From IMG/VR virus record IMGVR_UViG_3300036794_000032, positions 1 through 48,379 of that record: a DNA stretch of 48,379 nucleotides; one strand, written 5' to 3'. The stretch comes from a virus. Its lineage: Duplodnaviria; Caudoviricetes. The translations under genes were made by a program, and so were the position numbers. Positions 141 through 48,379 of the stretch are shown here, one piece after another (within the stretch, counting starts at the first letter, position 1; every line of letters begins with the position of its first letter). A model generated the notes under the pieces. That model was not told where the DNA came from. It worked only from the letters and a program-made list of their open reading frames with translations, and ran no database searches.

Positions 141-1009
141 GCCGATCCGGAGGTTGCGGTCGAGGTGGTGGTCGCCGGCGACTGCGTTAGGCCGTTGAGG
201 TAGTTGATCGCAAGCTGGACTGCGGAAAGATTGCTTCCGGTTGATGAGCCCTGGTAGGGCTGGTTGTAGTTGAGGTGCCCGTTGACGTTGCTGCTCACCG
301 ATAGGAACGGGAAGAACAGTTCGCACGCGATCTGCCACAGCGCGGGGATTTGCGCGGACAGGTCCGGCAGCGCGGCGGTCAATACGCCGACGATGCCGTC
401 GAATTCGGTGATTCCGGTTGTGGTGAAGGTCAGATCGACGATCTGAGTGAAATCTGTGCCAGCGGTGTCGTCGCCGGTGGTGGTGACTGGGTCGAGCGGG
501 CCGGAGTTGGCGAAGTCCCACCAGCTATCGGGCACCGACGTCATGCGGTAGTCCGCGCCCATCGCGCCGTGGCCACCGGGGTCAATTCCGCCCGGGATGG
601 TATGCCCGGCCTTGCGGACTGGGCTGCCGAACGTGACGGTACCGAGCCAGTCGTTAGCGCGGTTCGCGAGCGCGCCGCCGGGCTGAAGCTCGTTGTACAC
701 CAGGGCCGCGACGACGCATCCCAGGCTGTAGGCGCAGAACGCGAACGGTCCGGTCGTCGCGGTGATCGTGGCGACAGCGTTAGCCGCGCCTGCTTGGCAA
801 CCCGTTTCGATGGTGTAGCCAGCGGTGAAAACCTCTGTGCCGCTACCGTCCCACGGCATGTGCGCGCCCGGGTAGTCGATCGCGACAACGTTCCAGCTGG
901 ACTTGTCGACCCCTTCGGCGACTTGCAGGTCGAACTGGTTGAGGTCGCCGAACAACGGGACGAACGTCGCGGCGCCAGTGCCCGCGAATGTGTAGAGGGT
1001 GGCGGTCAC
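15..1009 (-). CDS. Large minor tail protein, N-terminal part: LysB/cutinase-like alpha/beta-hydrolase domain; continues across the contig junction into 48379
   Basis: Manually translated because it is absent from the ORF track (no stop before the contig edge). GTG at 1009 overlaps the upstream TGA. Reads MTATLYTFAGTG...IDYPG...FCAYSLG...TFGSPVR...WWDFANSGPLDP...GHLNY, then a Ser/Thr linker, then VNELRAMVLQ in frame with ORF 46675..48369. Confidence 0.88.
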
Positions 1010-2067
1010 GCTGGCCACCGGCGCAGCGGCGTGCCGTAGGCGATCAGCTTCGTTGCGCCGCTGCCGCCGGTAATTTGCACGGGGATCGACGACTCCACGG
1101 GTGCTGCGGCGACTGGTTTCTTCGGCAGCGACGTCGTGAAGCGGCCGTTGAGCAAGCTGTAGAACGGGCCCTGCGGCGCTTGGATCCCGAAATAGGATTC
1201 GAACTGTTGCAGCAGCGGCGGTACGTTGCCGTTCGTCGCCAAACTGATGACGGTCTCGATGAACTGCTGCCACTGGTTGAGCTGCGTCGGGGTGCCTGTT
1301 GCCGTGGTCGTCGACAAGTCGTAGACGCCGCGCTTGCGGGGATTGGTGCGCAGCAACGCGATCTGGTTTTCCAGCAGCGGCCCGAAGGTGATCATCGACT
1401 GTGAATTCGGGCCGTTACCGATCGATACGGTGCCAGGCCCGTAGAACAGGTAATCCGGCCAGAACACCTCGGTGCCGATGTTTGTGAGCGTGATGAATCC
1501 CGACGCGGCACCCCCGGCGGGCAGTGTGGTTCCGGCCGTCGGGAACTGGTCGACGCAGTCGAGGACGAACCGCCAGAACGCGTCGTCGATCCGGGTAGTC
1601 CACACGAACGGCTGACGGCAGTGCTGCGTGCCCAAAATGTCGTCGGTGGGTGCCTTGAACCAGCGGGCGCTCGCCCACCAGCGGCCCATATCCGCTGTGT
1701 CGAAGTTGAATTGGTTCGGCAGAGTGGGATCCCACGAGTCGATCCAGTCGCGGATGAACCTGCGTGTGATCGCCGGTGTCGAGCCGCGCACCTCGACGGG
1801 CATGTCGATGACGATCGGGTCATAGAGCGACTTGTTGAACGTGACGCCGTCCTGGTTGGCCCCCTTCTGGTCTTTGATCTGCCAGGTCGGGATGAGGCCT
1901 TTGATTTTCTTGACGGTGACGCCGTCACGGGTGATCGGTGCGCGGCCGCCCATGACCTGCCACGCGACGTTCTTGTCGTAGGAGATGCAGCTGACGTTGT
2001 AGCCGTCGCCGCGCAGGAACTGGTATGCGCCGTACGGTGTGATCGACCCGGCCGGGTAGGTGATCAA
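1006..2067 (-). CDS. Minor tail protein (distal tail/Dit-like)
   Basis: 353 aa, directly after the tape measure gene with a 4-nt overlap; resembles the first mycobacteriophage minor tail protein. Confidence 0.85.
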   Translation of the reverse strand: MITYPAGSITPYGAYQFLRGDGYNVSCISYDKNVAWQVMGGRAPITRDGVTVKKIKGLIPTWQIKDQKGANQDGVTFNKSLYDPIVIDMPVEVRGSTPAITRRFIRDWIDSWDPTLPNQFNFDTADMGRWWASARWFKAPTDDILGTQHCRQPFVWTTRIDDAFWRFVLDCVDQFPTAGTTLPAGGAASGFITLTNIGTEVFWPDYLFYGPGTVSIGNGPNSQSMITFGPLLENQIALLRTNPRKRGVYDLSTTTATGTPTQLNQWQQFIETVISLATNGNVPPLLQQFESYFGIQAPQGPFYSLLNGRFTTSLPKKPVAAAPVESSIPVQITGGSGATKLIAYGTPLRRWPA

Positions 2068-36055: not shown

Positions 36056-36874
36056 TTATTGCGCTGCTGCAGGTTCCGGTTTCGATGGCCACGCCGGATT
36101 GGGGTACGGAACTTGCTGCGCGGCCGCGGCTTTCTGCTGTTCAGGGGTCGATCCGGGGCGGCTGTAGGCGTCGTCGATCAGTGGCCGTTCCTGCGTGTCC
36201 AGGTCGTCGGCGGTTGAGTCTGCCCATCCGCGTAGAAAATCGTTGATCGGTAACTGCTGCGTGGGGACGAGTACGGCGGTGATGTTGCCCTGCTGGGTGA
36301 CCACGTTCGCGGGGTCTGCGGGGTCGGCGTTGGCGTAGTAGTGCAGGTGTTGGGTGCCGACCGCGGCGTTCACTTCGGCGAGTAGCCAGTTCGGGCTGCT
36401 GGTGTCGGTCGGGGTGTCAGACCAGCCGTCATATTCGTTAGCGACCATCGTCACCGGGTTCGCGATGTCCACTGGGATGCCTTGGCCGGCGGCGACGAGC
36501 TCCTTGTTGCGGGCAAACGTATCTCCGGCCAGTAGCACCTTGACGCCGGGCGGCAGCGTGTGTTGCGACAGAAACAGCGAAACGACTTGCGCGCCAAGGG
36601 AAAATCCCATCAGCGTGTCGCCCGCTTTGAACGGCACCTGTGCGATCGCGTCGGCGCCCTGCTGATTGTGGAACCCGTCAGCCGGATACGGGATCTTCTC
36701 GCACGGGCACATTCGGCCTCCGAACTGATCCTGTGTCACTGTCATGCTGATACCGAAATCACCGTCGAAGTCGAACGGTTCGACGGTGTAGGTGATCGGC
36801 CCGTCGGCGTGCGCCGACGCAGGTGAGAGCATCAGCGCGCCAGCCGCGGCGGCCGCCGCGATCATCGTCCTCAT
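36056..36874 (-). CDS. Secreted PE-PPE-like serine hydrolase
   Basis: Signal peptide ending SAHA; GFSLG elbow, EYDGWSD.P, H..Y and LIDDAYSR motifs. Confidence 0.8.
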   Translation of the reverse strand: MRTMIAAAAAAGALMLSPASAHADGPITYTVEPFDFDGDFGISMTVTQDQFGGRMCPCEKIPYPADGFHNQQGADAIAQVPFKAGDTLMGFSLGAQVVSLFLSQHTLPPGVKVLLAGDTFARNKELVAAGQGIPVDIANPVTMVANEYDGWSDTPTDTSSPNWLLAEVNAAVGTQHLHYYANADPADPANVVTQQGNITAVLVPTQQLPINDFLRGWADSTADDLDTQERPLIDDAYSRPGSTPEQQKAAAAQQVPYPNPAWPSKPEPAAAQ

Positions 36875-38022
36875 GCTGCGGCCGAACTGGTCGCGACCGC
36901 GCCACCCGAGGTGACGAACGCGGTGTACCAGGCGTCGATCTTCCGCACACCCAACGCGATCATCGGCGTGATGTCGTAGCTGAAATGGTCCGCGTTGTTC
37001 TGTGCGAACAGGAAGGTCAGCCCGTTGTAGATTTCCTCGACCATGCCGACGGGTTCCCCGAGGGCGTCGATGACGCTGACAACGGTCCCGAATGTCTGGT
37101 CAACGACCGCGTTGTAGACCAGTGTGCCGACCTTTCCGGCGCCCGAGGCGTCGTTCCACGGGTTCGCGGTATAGAGCTCGGTTTGCCCGTTGTCGCCCCC
37201 GAGCCACACATAGTCGTAGAAGATGCCCTCGGTGGTTTGCGCCGGAGTGAGACAGTCTGCGGGTCCGGCGATGCCCGACGTCGGCGCCCCGTCCTTCTGT
37301 GGTGACGGTCCCCAGCCGGCGTCGTCGTTGCCGTTGGCCGTGTCCGGTGCGCGCAGCGGGTTGCCCTCGGTGATGACGAACAGCACATCGTCCTGGCGGT
37401 GGTGCAGGGCGCCGCTGGGTGCGAGGACATCGTCGCGCCACCAGTGCGACCCGAGGATCGCGGACTGGCTGTAGAAGATGCACGCGCACGGACCGGACGG
37501 GTAAACCGGTCCGGGCCCGGCGCCGGCGCCCATCATGCGCTTCAGTTCGGTGCGGCCCATCTCCGCGGATGCGCCCATCGCCGGGCCGGTGACAGATGCC
37601 GGGTAGTTCCCGATCGGCTGGACGGTGACCTTCCCGGGGAGCGCCGCGGCGATCGCCAGGGCGATGCCGTAGGGCTGCGGCCAGTCGGCATCCCACATGT
37701 CGACGCCGGTCCCTTGCGCGGTGAAGATGGTGACCTTCGGAGGTTGGATGTAGCCGCAGCGAATCTGCCAGCTGTAGTTCATGATTCCGCTGATGGTCAG
37801 CCCGGGGTTGACTTTCGAGTTGTCGCCGTACGCGGTCTGCATGTGCGTGACGACGTCGACCATGGTCTGGTCGTAGGTCTGCGCCTCAGTGCCGCCGGCG
37901 TCGATGCTCGCCTTGAGCGGCGCGGCGTAGCTGAACTTGTTCGCCAGGAACACTTTCAGTTCCTCGACCGTGGCGCTGACGTCGCCGAGCCCGATCCCGA
38001 CCCACTTGCCGTTGATGTCCAT
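36871..38022 (-). CDS. lysB: Lysin B (mycolylarabinogalactan esterase-like)
   Basis: N-terminal PG-binding-like region; FTAQGTG, QPIGNYPA, YSQSA and GNPLR motifs; follows lysA. Confidence 0.88.
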   Translation of the reverse strand: MDINGKWVGIGLGDVSATVEELKVFLANKFSYAAPLKASIDAGGTEAQTYDQTMVDVVTHMQTAYGDNSKVNPGLTISGIMNYSWQIRCGYIQPPKVTIFTAQGTGVDMWDADWPQPYGIALAIAAALPGKVTVQPIGNYPASVTGPAMGASAEMGRTELKRMMGAGAGPGPVYPSGPCACIFYSQSAILGSHWWRDDVLAPSGALHHRQDDVLFVITEGNPLRAPDTANGNDDAGWGPSPQKDGAPTSGIAGPADCLTPAQTTEGIFYDYVWLGGDNGQTELYTANPWNDASGAGKVGTLVYNAVVDQTFGTVVSVIDALGEPVGMVEEIYNGLTFLFAQNNADHFSYDITPMIALGVRKIDAWYTAFVTSGGAVATSSAAA

Positions 38023-39374: not shown

Positions 39375-39650
39375 TTAGGAGCTCGGCGTCGGGGTAGGCG
39401 GTTCGAGGCCCTGAAGATCGGTCAAGGCCTGATTCAGCCCGGACAGGTCCGCTTCAGGCAGCGACTGCTGCAGCGATGCGATCTCCGACGACAGCGCAGT
39501 TTTCACTGCCTCGAGGTTCGTCGCGAGGTTGTCGAGATCAGTCTGGTCAACTTGTACTGCGGCCATGATTTGTTGGATTCCTTTCATCATTTCTACTTGT
39601 CCCCCCATGAGCTGCTTTGCCCACGGAGGAGGATTGCGGTTGAACCTCAT
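39375..39650 (-). CDS. Small coiled-coil hypothetical protein
   Basis: Heptad pattern; ATGA-coupled to the PLD gene. Confidence 0.65.
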   Translation of the reverse strand: MRFNRNPPPWAKQLMGGQVEMMKGIQQIMAAVQVDQTDLDNLATNLEAVKTALSSEIASLQQSLPEADLSGLNQALTDLQGLEPPTPTPSS

Positions 39651-40195
39651 TGCGCGCCTTTCTTCGCGAGCATGTTGGCGTGGATCGCGTCGACGCGGGC
39701 GCGCGCCTCAGCCGCCACATACGGGTCGGCGATCACCGTAAGTTGGTTGTCCTGCTTGGTTTCCGCACCCGTAGACCAGTTCGTCGAACCGGTCACCACC
39801 ACGACACCGTCGATGATCAGTAACTTCAGATGCATGATCGCGCCATGCTCGGAACGCCCGACCGCGATCGACGACGCCGGATAATCGTTGTGGGCCAACA
39901 GTTCGCGTTCGTGCGTCCCACCGGCCTGCGAGCTGTCCAACGTGAGCTGGACGAAGCAGTGCTCGTGCTCAAGTTTCGCTTGCAAGGTGTCGGCGAGCTC
40001 AGGGTCGTCGAAGCCGTACATCGCGACGACGAGGGACTTCTCGGCTGATGCGAGGAGGTACTTCAGTGCGCCGTGAAGGTCGTCGACCGGCGCATAGAAA
40101 GTGCGGTGCGTGTCCGGGTAGCCGGGCGGAAACGGCCCATTTTTGAATTGGTCGAGGACCGCGAGGCTGGTGAGTGGGTGTTCGCGGCAGATCAC
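39647..40195 (-). CDS. Phospholipase D superfamily protein (single HKD, Nuc-like)
   Basis: VAMYGF and MHLKLLIIDG....TGSTNWS motifs. Confidence 0.88.
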   Translation of the reverse strand: MICREHPLTSLAVLDQFKNGPFPPGYPDTHRTFYAPVDDLHGALKYLLASAEKSLVVAMYGFDDPELADTLQAKLEHEHCFVQLTLDSSQAGGTHERELLAHNDYPASSIAVGRSEHGAIMHLKLLIIDGVVVVTGSTNWSTGAETKQDNQLTVIADPYVAAEARARVDAIHANMLAKKGAQ

Positions 40196-41203: not shown

Positions 41204-42130
41204 TTATGCGTAAACCCAGCGCAGTCGGCCGTAGGGACCGCCGCCTGCACCGCCAGCACCGCTAGCGTTTCCGTTGAGGCTGGCACCACCGCCAGCGCCT
41301 CCGGCACCATTCCCGAGCGCAGTTGCTCCTGCTTGGGCTGCACCGGTGATAGAAGCTGCACCGCCGCCAGCGCCTTGACCACCGATCCCGGCTACAGCAG
41401 CACTACCGCCAGATGGGGAAGCTCCCCCGACAACTCCTGCCGCGGCACCTGTTAAACCGTATTGCAGAGTTTGCCAACCGCCAGCACCGCCTGCGCTGGC
41501 TGAATCGGCGGCTGTGATCCCTCCTCCGGCCCCTCCACCGCTTGGAGCGCCGCTGGTAGATTGCGCCCCAGCAGCTCCGACGCCTCCAGTTACGCTGGCG
41601 CTGCCGCCGGCGCTCCCGTTAAATTGGCCTTGGCCGAACACTCCGCCTGTTCCGGTCGAAGCTGTTCCGCCAGCAGCAGCCGCACCCACAACTGTTGATA
41701 CCAGGAGTGATCCGGTGGCGAAGGACGCAGCCGCCGGGGCACCGCCCGGGTTGCCGTTTGTGCTATCGGTGGTTACCGCGGCCCCTCCTGCTCCCGCGGC
41801 GGGGAGTGTGAGGGTGAACGTGCTCCCAAATAGTGTGGAGGGAATAAAATAGTTGACGATCATCGCGCCGGAAGCGCCGCCGCCGCCGCCGCAACGCACC
41901 GATGCTGCCGCGCCGCGCCGACCGCTTCCGCCGCCGCCGCCTGGTCCGATCAAAGACTCGATCCACACGCCAATAGGGAATTCACCGTTCGGGCCGAGCG
42001 GTATAGCTACACCGGTTTGCGTGGTGAAGTATTCGGCGCGCGTTGACAATCCGATTAATGCTTCTGGAGGGATGTTTCGGAAAATGTTGTAGAGGCCGTC
42101 GAACACTGTGCGGCGTCGGTAGAAACTCAT
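41204..42130 (-). CDS. Glycine-rich minor tail protein
   Basis: GPGGGGGSGRRG and many GAGGG repeats. Confidence 0.8.
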   Translation of the reverse strand: MSFYRRRTVFDGLYNIFRNIPPEALIGLSTRAEYFTTQTGVAIPLGPNGEFPIGVWIESLIGPGGGGGSGRRGAAASVRCGGGGGASGAMIVNYFIPSTLFGSTFTLTLPAAGAGGAAVTTDSTNGNPGGAPAAASFATGSLLVSTVVGAAAAGGTASTGTGGVFGQGQFNGSAGGSASVTGGVGAAGAQSTSGAPSGGGAGGGITAADSASAGGAGGWQTLQYGLTGAAAGVVGGASPSGGSAAVAGIGGQGAGGGAASITGAAQAGATALGNGAGGAGGGASLNGNASGAGGAGGGPYGRLRWVYA

Positions 42131-43899
42131 GTCAGTAGTCCTCCTGTGGTCAAGTTGCGGATGGTCACTTCTCCGACGCGAACTGTCGCAGTTCCCGATG
42201 TGACCGAGGGAAGCCAGACCAGAAGCTTCATGTCGGTCATGGCCGAAAGGACGGTTAATTCGACGTACAGTTCCCCGTCTTCGGCATCCCCCGTCCAGTT
42301 CTCAATGCCGTTGTAGAGGGCCGTCACGCTGCTTCCGCCAGGGGGCGTAAATCCGCCCGGCGTATCCGTCAATAAACAGACGTCAAATACGGCACCGGCC
42401 GCTTCTATGTTTTGTGTCTGAACTCGGCAGCTGAAAGCAATGACGTCGCCCACCGACCAACCGGTAGTGATGGAGGCTTGAAGAGAAGGCGTCTGACCCG
42501 TAGACGCGGTCATTTGCTGCCATTTGCCGTACAAGTTGTCGGAAGCCAGCGGCGTTACTAGGGAGAACGTTCCTGCACCTGATGCGGTCAGCCCGTCCGC
42601 CACACCGTCGGAGTTGGTGTCGGTAGTGAATAGGCCGAGGTTGATGGTGCCGTTGTTGAACAGGTTCGACAGGTCGTTGGTTTGACGGGCTGTGTGAACG
42701 AGGCTGTTGGGTGGGAACATATCGGCTACCCCATCGGAGATGGCCTGCTGTGCGATCGCCCGCTGTCCAGCACCGGTTGGGTGAATCAGATCGGACTGTC
42801 CGAGACCAGAAATGTAGGTGCCGTCGATGGCGGCGCACGCAGTGTGAGCGTCGATCACCGCAAACCCGTTCAGAGATGCATACCTCCTGATCCAGGAATT
42901 CCACTGGTGAATGTTGGCCTGGTAGGTGGACGGTGATCCGCCGAAGTTGTTCGGCGGAACACACCAGAGGATCGGTGCAATCCCCGCGTTGAGCAGTCCT
43001 GCCACAATAGATTTCAACGTGGTCTTCATCGCCGTGAAGTTCGGGTTAGGCGATGAAACCTGATCCAAATCGTTACTGGCGGAGGCGACCACGCATGCAC
43101 CCGGAAGGGGATTCATCGCGACGACTTGCGGCAACTGCACCGTTAAAGCACTGTTCAGGTTGGAACCTGAGATCGCGAAGTCGGCGCCCGCGTAGCGGAT
43201 GCGCTGATGGGTCATGACCTGGAGCTGCTGTAGATAGTTCTGGCCGATCGACGGGCCGTAGCCCAGCAGGTTGCCCCACCAGGTAATCGAGTCGCCAAGC
43301 GCCGCAATCGTGTTACGCCCTGGCCGGATCTGGGCGCTGTGGTAGCGGTTGTCCAGAGCGGCTACCGGATTGATAGCCCCCGACGGCGCCCAATACTTCG
43401 TTCCAGAGACGGATATGACCTGAAACTCGCGCTGCTCTCCGGACATTGGGAACGTGGCCGATGTTGCTGCGGACGAGTAAAACGTGTCTGACCCGGCGCA
43501 CGACAAGGTGACCGTGTTGGCTGATGCGTCGGCCGGGTCACGGCGGACCGCCAGTCGTGCACCCACCCGCAGTCCAGATAATGCCGGAAGCGTTGGGGTC
43601 AGATTGCCGGAAGCGGCGTTGTACCAGGTGCTTTGACCGATCGCCGGGGCGGCGCTGGTGTTGGCGATAGTAACGGTGGTCAACGGTTCCGAGACGTTGG
43701 TGGCGCCGATGGCCATTGTGCCGTCAGCGTTATCGACCATGGTCTCGGCCACGTAGGGCAGCGATGGCCACGCTGTGGATCCGTCCCCTACCTTTACTTT
43801 TTTAGTATCGGTCTCGAAACCCAATTCTCCCTGCGCTAAAACAGTTGCAGCGGTCGTCCACGCCGAGGCGGTGCCGCGCCGAAATTGAATCTGAGTCAT
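42127..43899 (-). CDS. Tail fibre/spike with Mtd-N/hyaluronidase-N-like head and SGNH hydrolase domain
   Basis: QIQFRRGTA..W.....LAQGELGFETDT.K.KVGDG..W..LPY; LGDSIT, SND and DLIHP..AG motifs. Confidence 0.8.
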   Translation of the reverse strand: MTQIQFRRGTASAWTTAATVLAQGELGFETDTKKVKVGDGSTAWPSLPYVAETMVDNADGTMAIGATNVSEPLTTVTIANTSAAPAIGQSTWYNAASGNLTPTLPALSGLRVGARLAVRRDPADASANTVTLSCAGSDTFYSSAATSATFPMSGEQREFQVISVSGTKYWAPSGAINPVAALDNRYHSAQIRPGRNTIAALGDSITWWGNLLGYGPSIGQNYLQQLQVMTHQRIRYAGADFAISGSNLNSALTVQLPQVVAMNPLPGACVVASASNDLDQVSSPNPNFTAMKTTLKSIVAGLLNAGIAPILWCVPPNNFGGSPSTYQANIHQWNSWIRRYASLNGFAVIDAHTACAAIDGTYISGLGQSDLIHPTGAGQRAIAQQAISDGVADMFPPNSLVHTARQTNDLSNLFNNGTINLGLFTTDTNSDGVADGLTASGAGTFSLVTPLASDNLYGKWQQMTASTGQTPSLQASITTGWSVGDVIAFSCRVQTQNIEAAGAVFDVCLLTDTPGGFTPPGGSSVTALYNGIENWTGDAEDGELYVELTVLSAMTDMKLLVWLPSVTSGTATVRVGEVTIRNLTTGGLLT

Positions 43900-44569: not shown

Positions 44570-45766
44570 TCACATCTTGTTCATCGACCAATAGGTCAGG
44601 ATGTTGTTCGACTCTCCGAACACCTGAAGTCCGGATAGGAAGCTCGTCGGCTGTGTCGCGTCGACGTACACGATCGGGACTATCTGGTCACCGGCGGCGC
44701 AGAGAATGGGGCAGCTGCCGCCGATCGCGGTCGGTGCCCACTGGGTAGAGAAGACGTTCACACCCACGCTTGAGCCGAGCGCGAGTTGCTCAAGGGTGCC
44801 GTTCTTCAGATAGCCGACGTAGATGGACACCACACCGCTGCCGGAGATCGGGAACGCTTGGCTGCGAAGCTGAAACAGATATTGCCCAGGGTCATTTATG
44901 GTGATGGCGTCGTGACCACCCGAAGTGCTGGAGACAATTCCGGACGTCATGGCGGTAGTGACGTTGAAGAACCCGTTAGGGAAATATCCCCAAGCCATCG
45001 CGGAAGTCGGCGGAGATTGGTTCGTGGCGACGCTGATCGACTGAGCGGTCGGAGACGAGCACGCTTTCCGGAACCCGACCGAGGTCACCTGCGAACCGGC
45101 GACCGTAGCAGGAGCACCACCACCCGTCATGGCGGCGTTGTAGTCCTTGACCATTTGAACGTCGGCGTTGACAGCGGTCACCGTCATGCCGTCAAAAATC
45201 TGTCCGACTTGGCCGATCGCGGTCTGGTTGGTTTGGATAGCCGCGCCGGGATCGGCTCCGACAGTCGCTGTCGTGGCTGCTGCGCTGGTCTGGCCGAGTA
45301 GCAACTTGATGTCGGCCTGCGCGGCGCAGAACGTCCGCAGGCCATTGGTTCCCAGCGTTGTCGGGGTGTCTGTGGTTGCGCCGTACTGATAGACGACGTG
45401 GAACGGGTCGGCGAAGATGATCCAGAGATCTTCGGGGAGCCGAGACCACCAGCCCGCTTGAGTAGTGGCCTGCCCATTTGCCGTGTTCGCGGTTGTCTGC
45501 GCCCCATTCGCCGCCGACAACGCATTCGCCGCCGCGGTCTGCAACGCCGTCGCCCACGTGGTCAACCCGAGGAACGACGCGGCGGCCGGCCCGATGACCC
45601 CCGCGACGGCCAGCAGCACCTGCGCCAGCGTCTCGTCGGTGAACGCCGTCCAATACGCTTGCGCCTGCTGCTGTGTGAGCGGCTGCGTCGCCTTCGAGCT
45701 CGCGGGAATCGAGTGCACCGATGGCAGCGGCGCAACCTGATCACCCCAATTTGGGCCGGCTGTCAC
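44570..45766 (-). CDS. Minor tail protein
   Basis: 398 aa, helical N-terminus and beta-rich C-terminus; synteny. Confidence 0.72.
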   Translation of the reverse strand: MTAGPNWGDQVAPLPSVHSIPASSKATQPLTQQQAQAYWTAFTDETLAQVLLAVAGVIGPAAASFLGLTTWATALQTAAANALSAANGAQTTANTANGQATTQAGWWSRLPEDLWIIFADPFHVVYQYGATTDTPTTLGTNGLRTFCAAQADIKLLLGQTSAAATTATVGADPGAAIQTNQTAIGQVGQIFDGMTVTAVNADVQMVKDYNAAMTGGGAPATVAGSQVTSVGFRKACSSPTAQSISVATNQSPPTSAMAWGYFPNGFFNVTTAMTSGIVSSTSGGHDAITINDPGQYLFQLRSQAFPISGSGVVSIYVGYLKNGTLEQLALGSSVGVNVFSTQWAPTAIGGSCPILCAAGDQIVPIVYVDATQPTSFLSGLQVFGESNNILTYWSMNKM

Positions 45767-46623
45767 GAGATGCGGTTCATCTCCACGCAGAACCGAGTCG
45801 TCGACGCCGACGTCGTGAACGAGTCGGTGCCCGACTGCTGCTCAGCCTGAAGGAAAATCGTCGCCCCAGATCCGGCTGCCACAATCCCGTAGGTGGTTGG
45901 GGAGCTTCCCGCCGGTCCGCCGTCCCACAGCGTGATCGGCGGCGGATACTGCCCAGCGACACCGATGCCCAGGCCGACGTCATCGCCAGTCGTGGAATTC
46001 AGGCGCGCCACCAGGTTCACCTGAACGTTGGCGCCCGTGCCGACAACAACCGCGCCGCCCGAGACTTTCGGAGTCCACGCGAAGCGTTGCGCGGGAACAG
46101 CCACCTGCGCCAGCGTGCGCTGCGGACCATTCCCCGACGTCGTCGAATTGACGGTGGTGGGATAGAACTTGCCGCCGGCCAGCGCCGGGTTGAACGTCAT
46201 CTCCGGTATGCCGCTACCGGTTTCGTACACCAGGAAGTCGCCGAGTTGTGCGCCGGTCGCCCCGGACAGGTCCACCGCGGCCAGGAGCGCCACCGAGGCA
46301 GTGGGGCCATCCGCGCCGGAGTTCACCCAGAACGTCAGATCCCAGACCCCAGTGGCGGGATCGACAACATCGACTTGCGGGCTTGGGATCGTGCCACCGG
46401 GAGCGACCTGGTTGACGAACACGTTTCGCGGCGGCGACGGCGCCCCAGGAGGCCCTTGAGCGGGCGGCGGGATGCTGCCGCGGCCACCCGGAGGTGCCAG
46501 GAACAGGACAGTCGTTCCGGAACCAGACGGGTCGTTGTCGGCGGGCGAGAAGATCATCCCCTGCCACAGCCACCCATCGATGCCTTCCCAGGTGTATTCG
46601 ACCCACGGCGACGGCGCGGTCAT
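45763..46623 (-). CDS. Minor tail protein
   Basis: QGPPG, RTLAQV.VP..FAW.P.VSG and VARL motifs typical of mycobacteriophage tail proteins. Confidence 0.78.
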   Translation of the reverse strand: MTAPSPWVEYTWEGIDGWLWQGMIFSPADNDPSGSGTTVLFLAPPGGRGSIPPPAQGPPGAPSPPRNVFVNQVAPGGTIPSPQVDVVDPATGVWDLTFWVNSGADGPTASVALLAAVDLSGATGAQLGDFLVYETGSGIPEMTFNPALAGGKFYPTTVNSTTSGNGPQRTLAQVAVPAQRFAWTPKVSGGAVVVGTGANVQVNLVARLNSTTGDDVGLGIGVAGQYPPPITLWDGGPAGSSPTTYGIVAAGSGATIFLQAEQQSGTDSFTTSASTTRFCVEMNRIS

Positions 46624-47165
46624 GTGCTTTGCCCTTGACTCAGTAACACGGCGTTGAGGTCCTCCACTACTCCGTTAATGAGGCGTTGCGAACGTGCGAT
46701 CGGCGCCTCTTCGGCCTTGTTGTCGCCGAGCTGCACAGTCAAAAGCGCTGCCTGGTCGACGGTTTCGGTGAGCATCACGTTTTCGACGTAGTCGGTGAAT
46801 AGCGTTCCGTCGTCGAGCGCGATCGACATGAGTGCCCCGACAACGACGTCGGTGCCCAACCAGAAGGGATATCCGTCTCGCCAGGACGCGGTCCCCGACA
46901 AGTAACCTCTCGTGTCCCAAAACGCCGATATGAAGCTGAATAGGGCGTCGACGTCGTAGGGTGCGCCGCCGGTCGGAATGAACTTTTCCGGCTTCCCGTA
47001 CGGGCCCATGCTTTTTCGGCGGTCGTAATTTTCGATGAGCTGAAATGCGAGCAGCATGTTCGTGAACAGGCCATCGAGGACGTTCGAAAACCCTGTGATA
47101 CCAGCAGCTATCGAGAACATGTCGATGATGTACTCGAAGAACGCGTTGATCAGATCGTTCATCCA
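46620..47165 (-). CDS. Large minor tail protein, C-terminal part (after the 49-nt insert)
   Basis: WMNDLIN...LLAFQ...RR..MGP...E.F...FWDTRG...GD...E.P, the typical C-terminal segment of Gp28/Gp37-like tail proteins. Confidence 0.85.
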   Translation of the reverse strand, partial: WMNDLINAFFEYIIDMFSIAAGITGFSNVLDGLFTNMLLAFQLIENYDRRKSMGPYGKPEKFIPTGGAPYDVDALFSFISAFWDTRGYLSGTASWRDGYPFWLGTDVVVGALMSIALDDGTLFTDYVENVMLTETVDQAALLTVQLGDNKAEEAPIARSQRLINGVVEDLNAVLLSQGQST

Positions 47166-47214
47166 TTGTCAGGACCAAGCCGGCGCCCCCCCAGTCACCC
47201 AGAGGGGCACCGGC
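47166..47214 (-). other. 49-nt hairpin insert between matched CAA codons (candidate bypass or micro-intron element)
   Basis: CCC CAA [GCCGGTGCCCCTCTGGGTGACTGGGGGGGCGCCGGCTTGGTCCTGACAA] TGG ATG; hairpin spans 47175-47218. Confidence 0.75.
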
Positions 47215-48379
47215 TTGGGGGCTCTGCCCTCCGATGATGATCTGCCAGGCCTGTGGTGCGTGATCCACAAGTTCCATGGAGACCATCGGGCCGTCTGGGC
47301 TATCGATCAGGACTGCCCAGGGTTTGACGAAGTTCAGGCCCAGCGCCGGCGCGATGTAGATGCCGAGGGTGTCGGTGGGCGCGTATTCCCCGGTCGGGTT
47401 CAACCACGGGGACAGCACATCGCCGAGCACCGAGCCTTCGAAGTTGACTGCCTGCGAGAGCAATCCGTCTTCCCAACCGCCGGTCGGGCCGGTGATTCCG
47501 GAGCGGTCGGTGCACCGGAACACGTATGTGGGGACTTGGAGGTTGGCCCACTCGTCGGGTTGCGGATCACCGACGAGCCAGAGGTCCATGGTGCACACCA
47601 CGCCATAGGATTTGGTTGCCTTATCGATCAGCGCCTTGCAGGTGTCCATGCGGGCGTTCCACGTCACCGTCGGACTGGCGTCGTAGTCCGGGTTGTGGTG
47701 CACCACGTAGATCGGCGTGGACAGCAGCTGCGCGGGAGTCGCGTTCTCCGACAACCACGTTCCGAACCAGGAACGCAGGTCCAGATTGAGTGAGCCTGCG
47801 TTGTTCAGGAACTCGTTGAGGCCTATCTGAATCCGCAGCGCCTGCTCGGCGACCATGGTTTCGATGCAGGTGCACAGGGGGCCGATGTAGATCGCGTAGT
47901 AGAGCGGGCCCTGAAACCAGATAGGAAATGCCCACTCAGGCCACACGCTCATGTAATTCAAAATGTCGTAAATGCCAAGACATTTCGCCGTCAGCGTCTT
48001 CTGCGAATTTTCCAGCTTAATCGTCGAAGTGTCGACGGTGGCCGCCCACAACCTCAGCCCGCGAACCTCGATGGTGACTCCGACGACCTCCGTGCGGCAC
48101 GCCCGGATGTAGGGCACCAGGTGATCGATGTTGCCGTTCTCGTCGTAGTACTTCAGCACCAGTTCGACGGCCTCGACCTCGTTGCGCGGCTTGGTGGCTT
48201 GCAGCGAGATCCGGTCTCCAGCCTCGCCTATCGGCCGCCACAGGTAGTCGTAGACCTCGACGACGATGCTGGTGACGTCGAGGTTATCCGTCTCCTGCAC
48301 CGCTTGCTCGGCGCCGGTGATCGCCACGTATTCGTTGTTCTGCAGCACCATCGCCCGAAGCTCGTTCACCGACGCTGAC
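47215..48379 (-). CDS. Large minor tail protein (Gp28/Gp37-like hub), central part
   Basis: VEVYD..WR.IG, WPEW..PI..Q, RMD, LW.VGD.QP and DRSG.TGPTG motifs, ending IIIGGQSPQ. Confidence 0.88.
48254..48379. repeat. 126-bp terminal direct repeat, copy 2
   Basis: Identical to 15-140. Confidence 0.95.

Follow-up and report, generated by a model that had tools for sequence, protein, structure and literature searches.

How might a single protein be produced from a phage tail gene whose reading frame is broken by a 49-nt hairpin ending, like the codon before it, in CAA? The question is raised by a viral DNA of 48,379 nt (IMG/VR record IMGVR_UViG_3300036794_000032), referred to here as the window, meaning the whole stretch that was analyzed. 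From sequence comparison, the 49-nt hairpin is likely skipped by hairpin-driven programmed translational bypassing, i.e., ribosome hopping, which is a very rare way to read a gene.

The Interrupted Tail-Hub Gene

The window is a circular genome of temperate mycobacteriophage-like character, with a G+C content of 63.6%, a terminal repeat of 126 nt (positions 15–140 recur at the contig end) and annotated genes for terminase, portal, capsid, major tail, tape measure, integrase, RecET, and WhiB. The interrupted gene crosses the circular junction, and its parts, its neighbors and the elements of the gap are as follows.

1006..2067, minus strand: upstream tail gene (phrog_106, in the position of a distal tail protein), after the tape measure gene
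141..1009, minus strand: 5′ end of the hub gene across the circular junction, with a lysin B-like (phrog_102) region fused in front; probable start at GTG 1009
47215..48379, minus strand: upstream part of the hub gene (Sipho_Gp37, PF14594; PHROG 110)
47215..47217, minus strand: predicted take-off codon CAA (Gln), the last codon before the gap, equal to K391 of uninterrupted homologues
47175..47218, minus strand: 20-bp stem with a GTGA (GNRA) loop at 47195–47198; the base of the stem includes the take-off codon
47166..47214, minus strand: coding gap of 49 nt, with GCC as its first triplet and the family core GTGCCCC...GGGGC(A/G)C
47169..47171, minus strand: downstream-frame TGA that immediately precedes the landing codon and shuts that frame to ribosomes coming from upstream
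47166..47168, minus strand: predicted landing codon CAA, the last triplet of the gap, followed by TGG ATG
46620..47165, minus strand: downstream hub-gene part of 181 codons, counted from the resume codon TGG, with an ATG at 47160–47162
46675..46677, minus strand: stop of the frame-0 read-on, ending an 857-aa product with a non-hub tail
45763..46623, minus strand: next tail gene (phrog_732), overlapping the hub stop

Corndog gp59, a homologue of the window protein, is described in PMC13252515 as solved as a trimeric baseplate hub. Since the baseplate role points to an essential function, the hub gene, the single one of its kind among the annotated genes of the window, is presumably indispensable. 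An uninterrupted homologue, P0009, has a predicted structure (mean pLDDT 80) whose best fold matches are a Bxb1 tail tip chain (9d93_Oa) and a Douge baseplate chain (8zdo_s; E ~1e-22, TM ~0.4), and a PDB search by sequence gave no match. In the alignment, the two halves of the window gene meet P0009 at K391 and W392 with nothing lost or added; against PHROG 110, the upstream part reaches position 397 and the downstream part begins at 398. The K391/W392 junction is the start of a helix in the P0009 model. About 290 residues like lysin B (phrog_102, with a GxSxG-like motif) precede the window hub protein, while homologues start without them, and a second phrog_102 gene is found at 36871–38022.

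Most of what a first-pass annotation, made from the letters alone, had read at this locus holds. The 49-nt gap between CAA and CAA is found at 47166–47214 on the minus strand, and it does interrupt a core tail gene, splitting the baseplate-hub gene between residues 391 and 392 of the homologues. The joined ORF reaches the announced 859 amino acids if the genome is closed at the 126-nt terminal repeat and translation is taken to start at GTG 1009. TGA triplets are present both before the second CAA and in the loop, the frame-0 read-on is long (179 codons from the gap start), and the triplet directly after take-off is not a stop but GCC, a common sense codon used 43 times per 1000 codons in the window genome. 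Two descriptions needed amendment. The stem has 20 bp, a GTGA loop and four G-U pairs as described, but it begins one base earlier than the CAA, at 47218. A frameshift upstream of or within the hairpin indeed cannot rescue the gene, but a +1 shift downstream of the hairpin is formally possible, corresponding to removal of one base within 47151–47171. Because one-base removals open the frame only in this interval, a misread G run cannot account for the broken frame. The predicted folding energy of the hairpin is -45.3 kcal/mol on the mRNA strand versus -31.6 on the opposite strand, and no equally good structure appeared among 200 shuffles (z = -4.46). The window genome has one copy of the cassette.

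A Family of Related Cassettes

Homologous inserts with covarying stems and matched flanking codons, which the first-pass annotation had proposed looking for, do occur. Including that of the window, 27 distinct cassettes (30 rows) of 49–58 nt with a common core were read from DNA; they begin G(C/T)N(G/T)GTGCCCC and carry the complementary arm. Five of their sites are in the hub gene: after the K/Q, W, or L codon of one motif, after an L codon 11 positions on (L424), and after a W codon near profile position 140 (L387). The sixth, found with a pattern blind to the host gene, is in the ATPase domain of the large terminase, just before a Walker B-like motif. Among the 80 nearest terminase loci, 4 are filled and 76 are empty and continuous. 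Of 184 homologous hub proteins, 120 were listed: 105 are continuous, 1 is truncated at the site, 1 is the window's own, and 13 break off from the family sequence in a shared (A/V)(G/C)A(P/Q/H) signature. Nine of these protein-only cases, one of them at an Ile site, allow a matched landing triplet at 52–58 nt, and the other four have no solution.

Alignments run across the gap in 20 of 407 matching records (13 phage names), to which MOOREtheMARYer was added by a separate search. The cassette was read directly in the GenBank records of Che9c, Mycofy1, ThetaBob, and MOOREtheMARYer, and in IMG/VR records taken as Sbash, Spartacus, Cornie, Renaud18, Kersh, and Pollywog; Guppsters, LunaBlu, Sabbb, and MadMen are counted as carriers by BLAST coverage alone. 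Altogether, the cassette is present in at least 14 cultured phages with finished genomes. Their carrier genes are annotated either as two genes or as a wrong-frame read-on, and misannotation of the hub gene is probable in Che9c, Sbash, Mycofy1, MOOREtheMARYer, and others. Sbash derivatives are reported to grow lytically (PMC6426596). An empty allele is found in Saroj, identical to ThetaBob at 1654 of 1704 aligned bases.

In pattern scans of metagenomes and genomes, L186 was the sole true case among the matches listed, the rest being mostly chance; a plasmid search gave no match, and a second viral pattern (34 stretches) no further cassette. The count leaves out weaker hairpins from a model scan and contig G001, which is broken inside the hairpin with the halves at its two ends. 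A hairpin with the same core at about 587–653 of L388 (28.8 bits with the model) was set aside: it looks intergenic and precedes a ribosome binding site. About 100 nt past the terminase cassette of L345, a second, palindromic-looking frame break follows an RRLW motif and may be another insert. Assemblies break or are garbled in the hairpin in several places (the end of L001, L012, L027, P0014, and run X3), so that the family is probably undercounted.

Codon Match and Codon Register

Ribosomes likely hop the gap, and what most decides for this is that the gap always ends in a near-copy of the take-off codon. The landing triplet equals the take-off codon at positions 1 and 2 in 27 of 27 cassettes and at all three positions in 7, counts that do not amount to 27 independent trials because the cassettes are related. 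Five different take-off codons are used, in the take-off>landing combinations TGG>TGA (15), TTG>TTA (3), CTG>CTG (3), TGG>TGG (2), and CAA>CAA, AAG>AAG, TGG>TGC, and CTG>CTA (one each). TGG>TGA is found at two sites about 250 codons apart, and TTG>TTA also at two sites. The landing codon was absent from every search pattern, and the triplet before it matches the take-off codon at chance level (5, 5, and 10 of 27 at positions 1, 2, and 3). An early copy of the take-off dinucleotide is present in the spacer of 1 of 27 cassettes, whereas shuffled spacers give 7.9 (P = 0.0002). In 27 of 27 cassettes the landing triplet is preceded by A or C, and 20 of 27 have A as the triplet's last base. Duplication of a target site could produce a codon match but would not explain the persistence of the first two bases only.

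Codon register is kept at all six sites read from DNA; for the three sites that came from a phase-free and gene-free pattern alone, this would happen by chance about once in 27. Gap length modulo 3 is 1 in 14 cassettes, 2 in 10 and 0 in 3, and in 17 of 27 a stop, at the landing triplet or just ahead of it, closes the downstream frame. L387 offers no single-shift route, and L032 has two in-frame stops.

In the proposed mechanism, the ribosome would slow once the take-off codon occupies its P site and its leading edge meets the G-C core of the stem, and the peptidyl-tRNA would let go of the take-off codon. The stem, whose base includes that codon, would re-form behind the sliding ribosome and block its return. 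The tRNA would re-pair at the first triplet after the stem that matches positions 1 and 2, predicted to be CAA in the window and most often UGA for tRNA-Trp across the family, and decoding would restart at the codon after the landing triplet. One full-length hub protein is thereby likely to be made from two frames.

Several features sit uneasily with bypassing. The codon after take-off is GCC, GCT, GTC, or GTG (Val or Ala) in 27 of 27 cassettes and is common in the window genome; take-off is followed by neither a stop nor a rare codon, so that the cassettes lack the stall signal of T4 gene 60. For a tRNA with C34, UGG>UGA, UUG>UUA, and UGG>UGC fall outside the standard wobble pairs. AGGGC, resembling a mini Shine-Dalgarno sequence, is found in only 15 of 27, is not clear in the window, is absent in the terminase cases and may pair with the upstream exon instead. 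A cut from GTGCC to AY restores the frame in 27 of 27, and a single frameshift does so on paper in 23 of 27. Upstream peptides differ between cassette sites, which argues against a shared nascent-peptide signal. In three RNA or presumed RNA runs and one run of unknown type, no contig was found over the junction of the ThetaBob-type locus.

Selection on the Hairpin and on the Downstream Frame

The cassette is selected as RNA, and the downstream hub frame is under purifying selection. Across 19 hub cassettes, which came from patterns holding only the 5′ arm, 99% of 304 cells of a 16-bp stem are paired, compared with 41–56% in slid controls; the stem was derived from the same, related sequences, so that these controls lean in its favor. 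Eight pairs of this stem are changed on both sides, and 0 of 500 shuffles were as good. The stems on the mRNA strand have 16 G-U and no A-C combinations in 378 cells, and the 3′ arm tracks the take-off codon, with TTG facing CAA, CTT facing AAG, and mostly CCA or CCG facing TGG. An Rfam scan of the cassettes gave eight weak matches, none near threshold. In the coding sequence past the gap, synonymous and non-synonymous changes number 16/0, 11/0, 21/1, 12/1, and 18/3 in close filled pairs; among the 14 pairs compared, more distant ones have more replacement there.

These observations bear on the suspicion that the gene is dead or the gap an assembly artefact, which is suggested by the frequent breaks of assemblies in the hairpin (L001/L012, L027, run X3). 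Besides the covariation and the purifying selection, the cassette stands in the finished genomes of the cultured phages, and an independent DNA contig of depth 207 runs through the hairpin; for the family this reading is largely refuted, and we give it almost no credence.

The G-U pairs also favor a fold of the RNA strand, which speaks against another idea, namely that RNA polymerase passes over the hairpin when the nascent RNA realigns on the short repeat. If its end were the take-off codon, such an RNA would, once realigned on the near-copy, give the same junction, but the match is only 2–3 nt and ends at a codon boundary. We consider polymerase realignment highly improbable.

Possible Two Chains or Frameshift Rescue

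It is also conceivable that two chains are made, the frame-0 product and a re-initiated C-terminal part, or that each case is rescued by its own frameshift or readthrough. In the window, an ATG lies one codon after the resume codon, some phages are annotated with two genes, and the one-shift routes in 23 of 27 cassettes would serve a frameshift. The first-pass annotation had named independent initiation at ATG 47162 as an option, and this fails in Che9c and Sbash, where the first ATG, GTG, or TTG comes 42 codons past the resume codon (33 in L032), although the codons before that first possible start still keep the family sequence. The frame-0 tails, of 7 to about 196 codons, are unconserved, and the terminase gap falls within the ATPase domain. 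As for frameshifting, the shifts needed are +1, -1, or none, and slippery heptamers are present in only three rows. We regard these rescues as very unlikely, and bypassing remains the preferred reading.

Splicing as a Possible Alternative

A more serious alternative is that the hairpin is a micro-intron, which a host or phage enzyme, or a trans-acting ribozyme, would excise from the mRNA. The strong structure on the mRNA strand would suit it, and so would the ends of the cassette. Group II introns have the ends GUGYG ... AY, and the cassette core starts with GTGCC and has AY at a frame-restoring place in 27 of 27 cassettes. However, these GTGCC-AY cuts add 1–3 residues; the +1 cut in L387 would put another residue in place of a proline with at least 90% conservation, and none of the 76 empty terminase alleles has an extra residue at the site. 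A group II domain V and six-domain fold are absent, the cassette being a single hairpin of 49–58 nt; no catalytic core can fit 50 nt, and no Rfam family reached threshold.

In favor of splicing, a spliced group I intron in the minor tail gene of the cluster J phages BAKA and Optimus (Pope et al., PMC3706429) is in the same host gene, 12 nt upstream of the window site. It differs from the cassettes, being 265 nt long and spliced, with U/G ends and without the cassette core, for which it did not come up in the pattern scan. A group I-like cut, with U ending the exon and G ending the intron, is impossible in 5 of 27 cassettes, and there is no invariant U-G pair.

Empty joints in the DNA runs might be mistaken for spliced products. 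Among the four runs, X1 has a filled and a diverged empty allele, X2 is empty, and X3 breaks in the hairpin; the joints in X1 and X2 carry synonymous changes, so they are DNA alleles and were rejected as products of splicing. Moreover, splicing leaves the codon register, the codon match and the scarcity of early landing sites unexplained. The suggestion that the hairpin is a degenerate intron remnant was right in that removal of the 43-nt GTGCC...CCTGAC restores the frame, but splicing is disfavored and we consider it unlikely; if true, a phage intron of 50 nt would be equally surprising. The view of the hairpin as a recoding element is strongly supported, and bypassing is the best fit of the options that the annotation offered.

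Comparison with Known Systems

What is known of programmed bypassing in bacteria comes almost entirely from T4 gene 60 and its homologues, and the present family would be an independent case with different signals. The cassette would work like T4 gene 60 and the mitochondrial byps, yet it fails the stop-codon and host-gene features of T4. As presented in Manning and Atkins (10.1101/2022.08.31.505936) and Wills et al. (10.1101/2024.12.09.627546), the T4 gene 60 cassette and its homologues share with our family the matched take-off and landing codons (CAA/CAA in the window), a hairpin at the take-off codon and, a feature reported for the T4 type, few premature landing triplets in the gap's 3′ portion. 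The differences are more numerous. The family has no stop or rare A-site codon, and its stem is longer, G-C and fills most of the gap. The hosts are hub and terminase genes, not topoisomerase, with different nascent peptides; landing is mostly on a stop codon, and the mini Shine-Dalgarno is not universal. A linked MobA-type endonuclease is a T4 feature, whereas the cassette loci are mostly without a linked endonuclease.

The Magnusiomyces mitochondrial byps rely on unused codons after take-off, unlike the cassette of the window, where that codon is common. They resemble our family, according to a review (PMC7026636) and a preprint (10.1101/2022.08.31.505936), in being many short hairpin inserts at several sites and in several genes, with matched codons, latitude at the third base and apparent mobility; the cassette family differs in using bacterial ribosomes and phage genes. 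In the terminase gene of Streptomyces phage Hau3, a UUA-linked bypass candidate is reported (Antonov et al., PMC10732093), which is likewise in an actinophage structural gene but needs the rare UUA, whereas the cassette family has a common A-site codon and a conserved hairpin.

A literature search found no description of the cassette family, with subscription papers, phage database notes and supplements largely outside its scope; in the accessible parts of PMC12646305 and PMC4351075, possible bypassing is mentioned at other mycobacteriophage sites only. We put forward, tentatively and at slightly below an even chance, a broader proposal of a portable jump cassette. A single hairpin family would make bacterial ribosomes skip about 50 nt in any gene, without a stop codon, hungry codon or special nascent peptide, usually by taking tRNA-Trp onto UGA, and would have moved between mycobacteriophage tail genes and the terminase genes of unrelated phages. 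The carriers are cultured phages that grow on M. smegmatis, and near-identical empty alleles serve as controls, such as Saroj for ThetaBob. Natural variants in take-off codon, landing codon, gap length and host peptide make the minimal drivers of ribosome sliding directly testable.

Spread of the Cassette and Other Observations

FastTree was run on 146 upstream segments, 32 of them filled and 114 empty, with P0008, P0014, and short loci left out. On this tree the filled and empty labels need 26 changes, close to the mean of 29.1 for shuffled labels; 22 of the changes are forced by well-supported branches, and for two filled rows there are identical empty rows. The cassette has thus been gained or lost repeatedly, the tree giving no direction. 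The earlier idea of a small mobile hairpin is right as an account of origin, since the two kinds of allele are intermingled across the gene tree. An exact 3-nt repeat, such as a target duplication would leave, is found at the gap ends in 7 of 27 cassettes, and the insertion phase is always 0. W-type cassettes share the flank CGA TCG CC, which is absent in nine empty loci compared. A co-conversion tract between ThetaBob and Saroj was considered and rejected, the excess of differences near the site being only mild.

At one locus (contig G001; L012 863–1501, plus strand), a NUMOD4-HNH endonuclease gene is convergent on the cassette-bearing hub gene and overlaps its stop; a crude motif scan found such an adjacent gene at no other of 16 loci, and the HNH gene of the window adjoins the terminase, not the hub. 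By analogy with the T4 cassette, it is plausible that the cassette spread through protection from a homing nuclease, and phage recombination may be another reason for its spread. The BAKA intron (L035, 28186–28450) inserts four codons upstream of the window gap position; with the cassette at the same motif, this makes the motif a hotspot for two kinds of mobile insert.

Some other features of the window are worth recording. Its bases 1–14 differ from the sequence that should adjoin the terminal repeat, look like a short stretch of nearby sequence copied in inverted orientation, and probably mark an assembly end. A small gene at 39647–40195 (minus strand) matched only phrog_12711; by its motif, we take it to have the look of a phospholipase D-type nuclease. 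Finally, 42127–43899 (minus strand) is a tail-fibre-like gene combining Mtd_N with a GDSL esterase.
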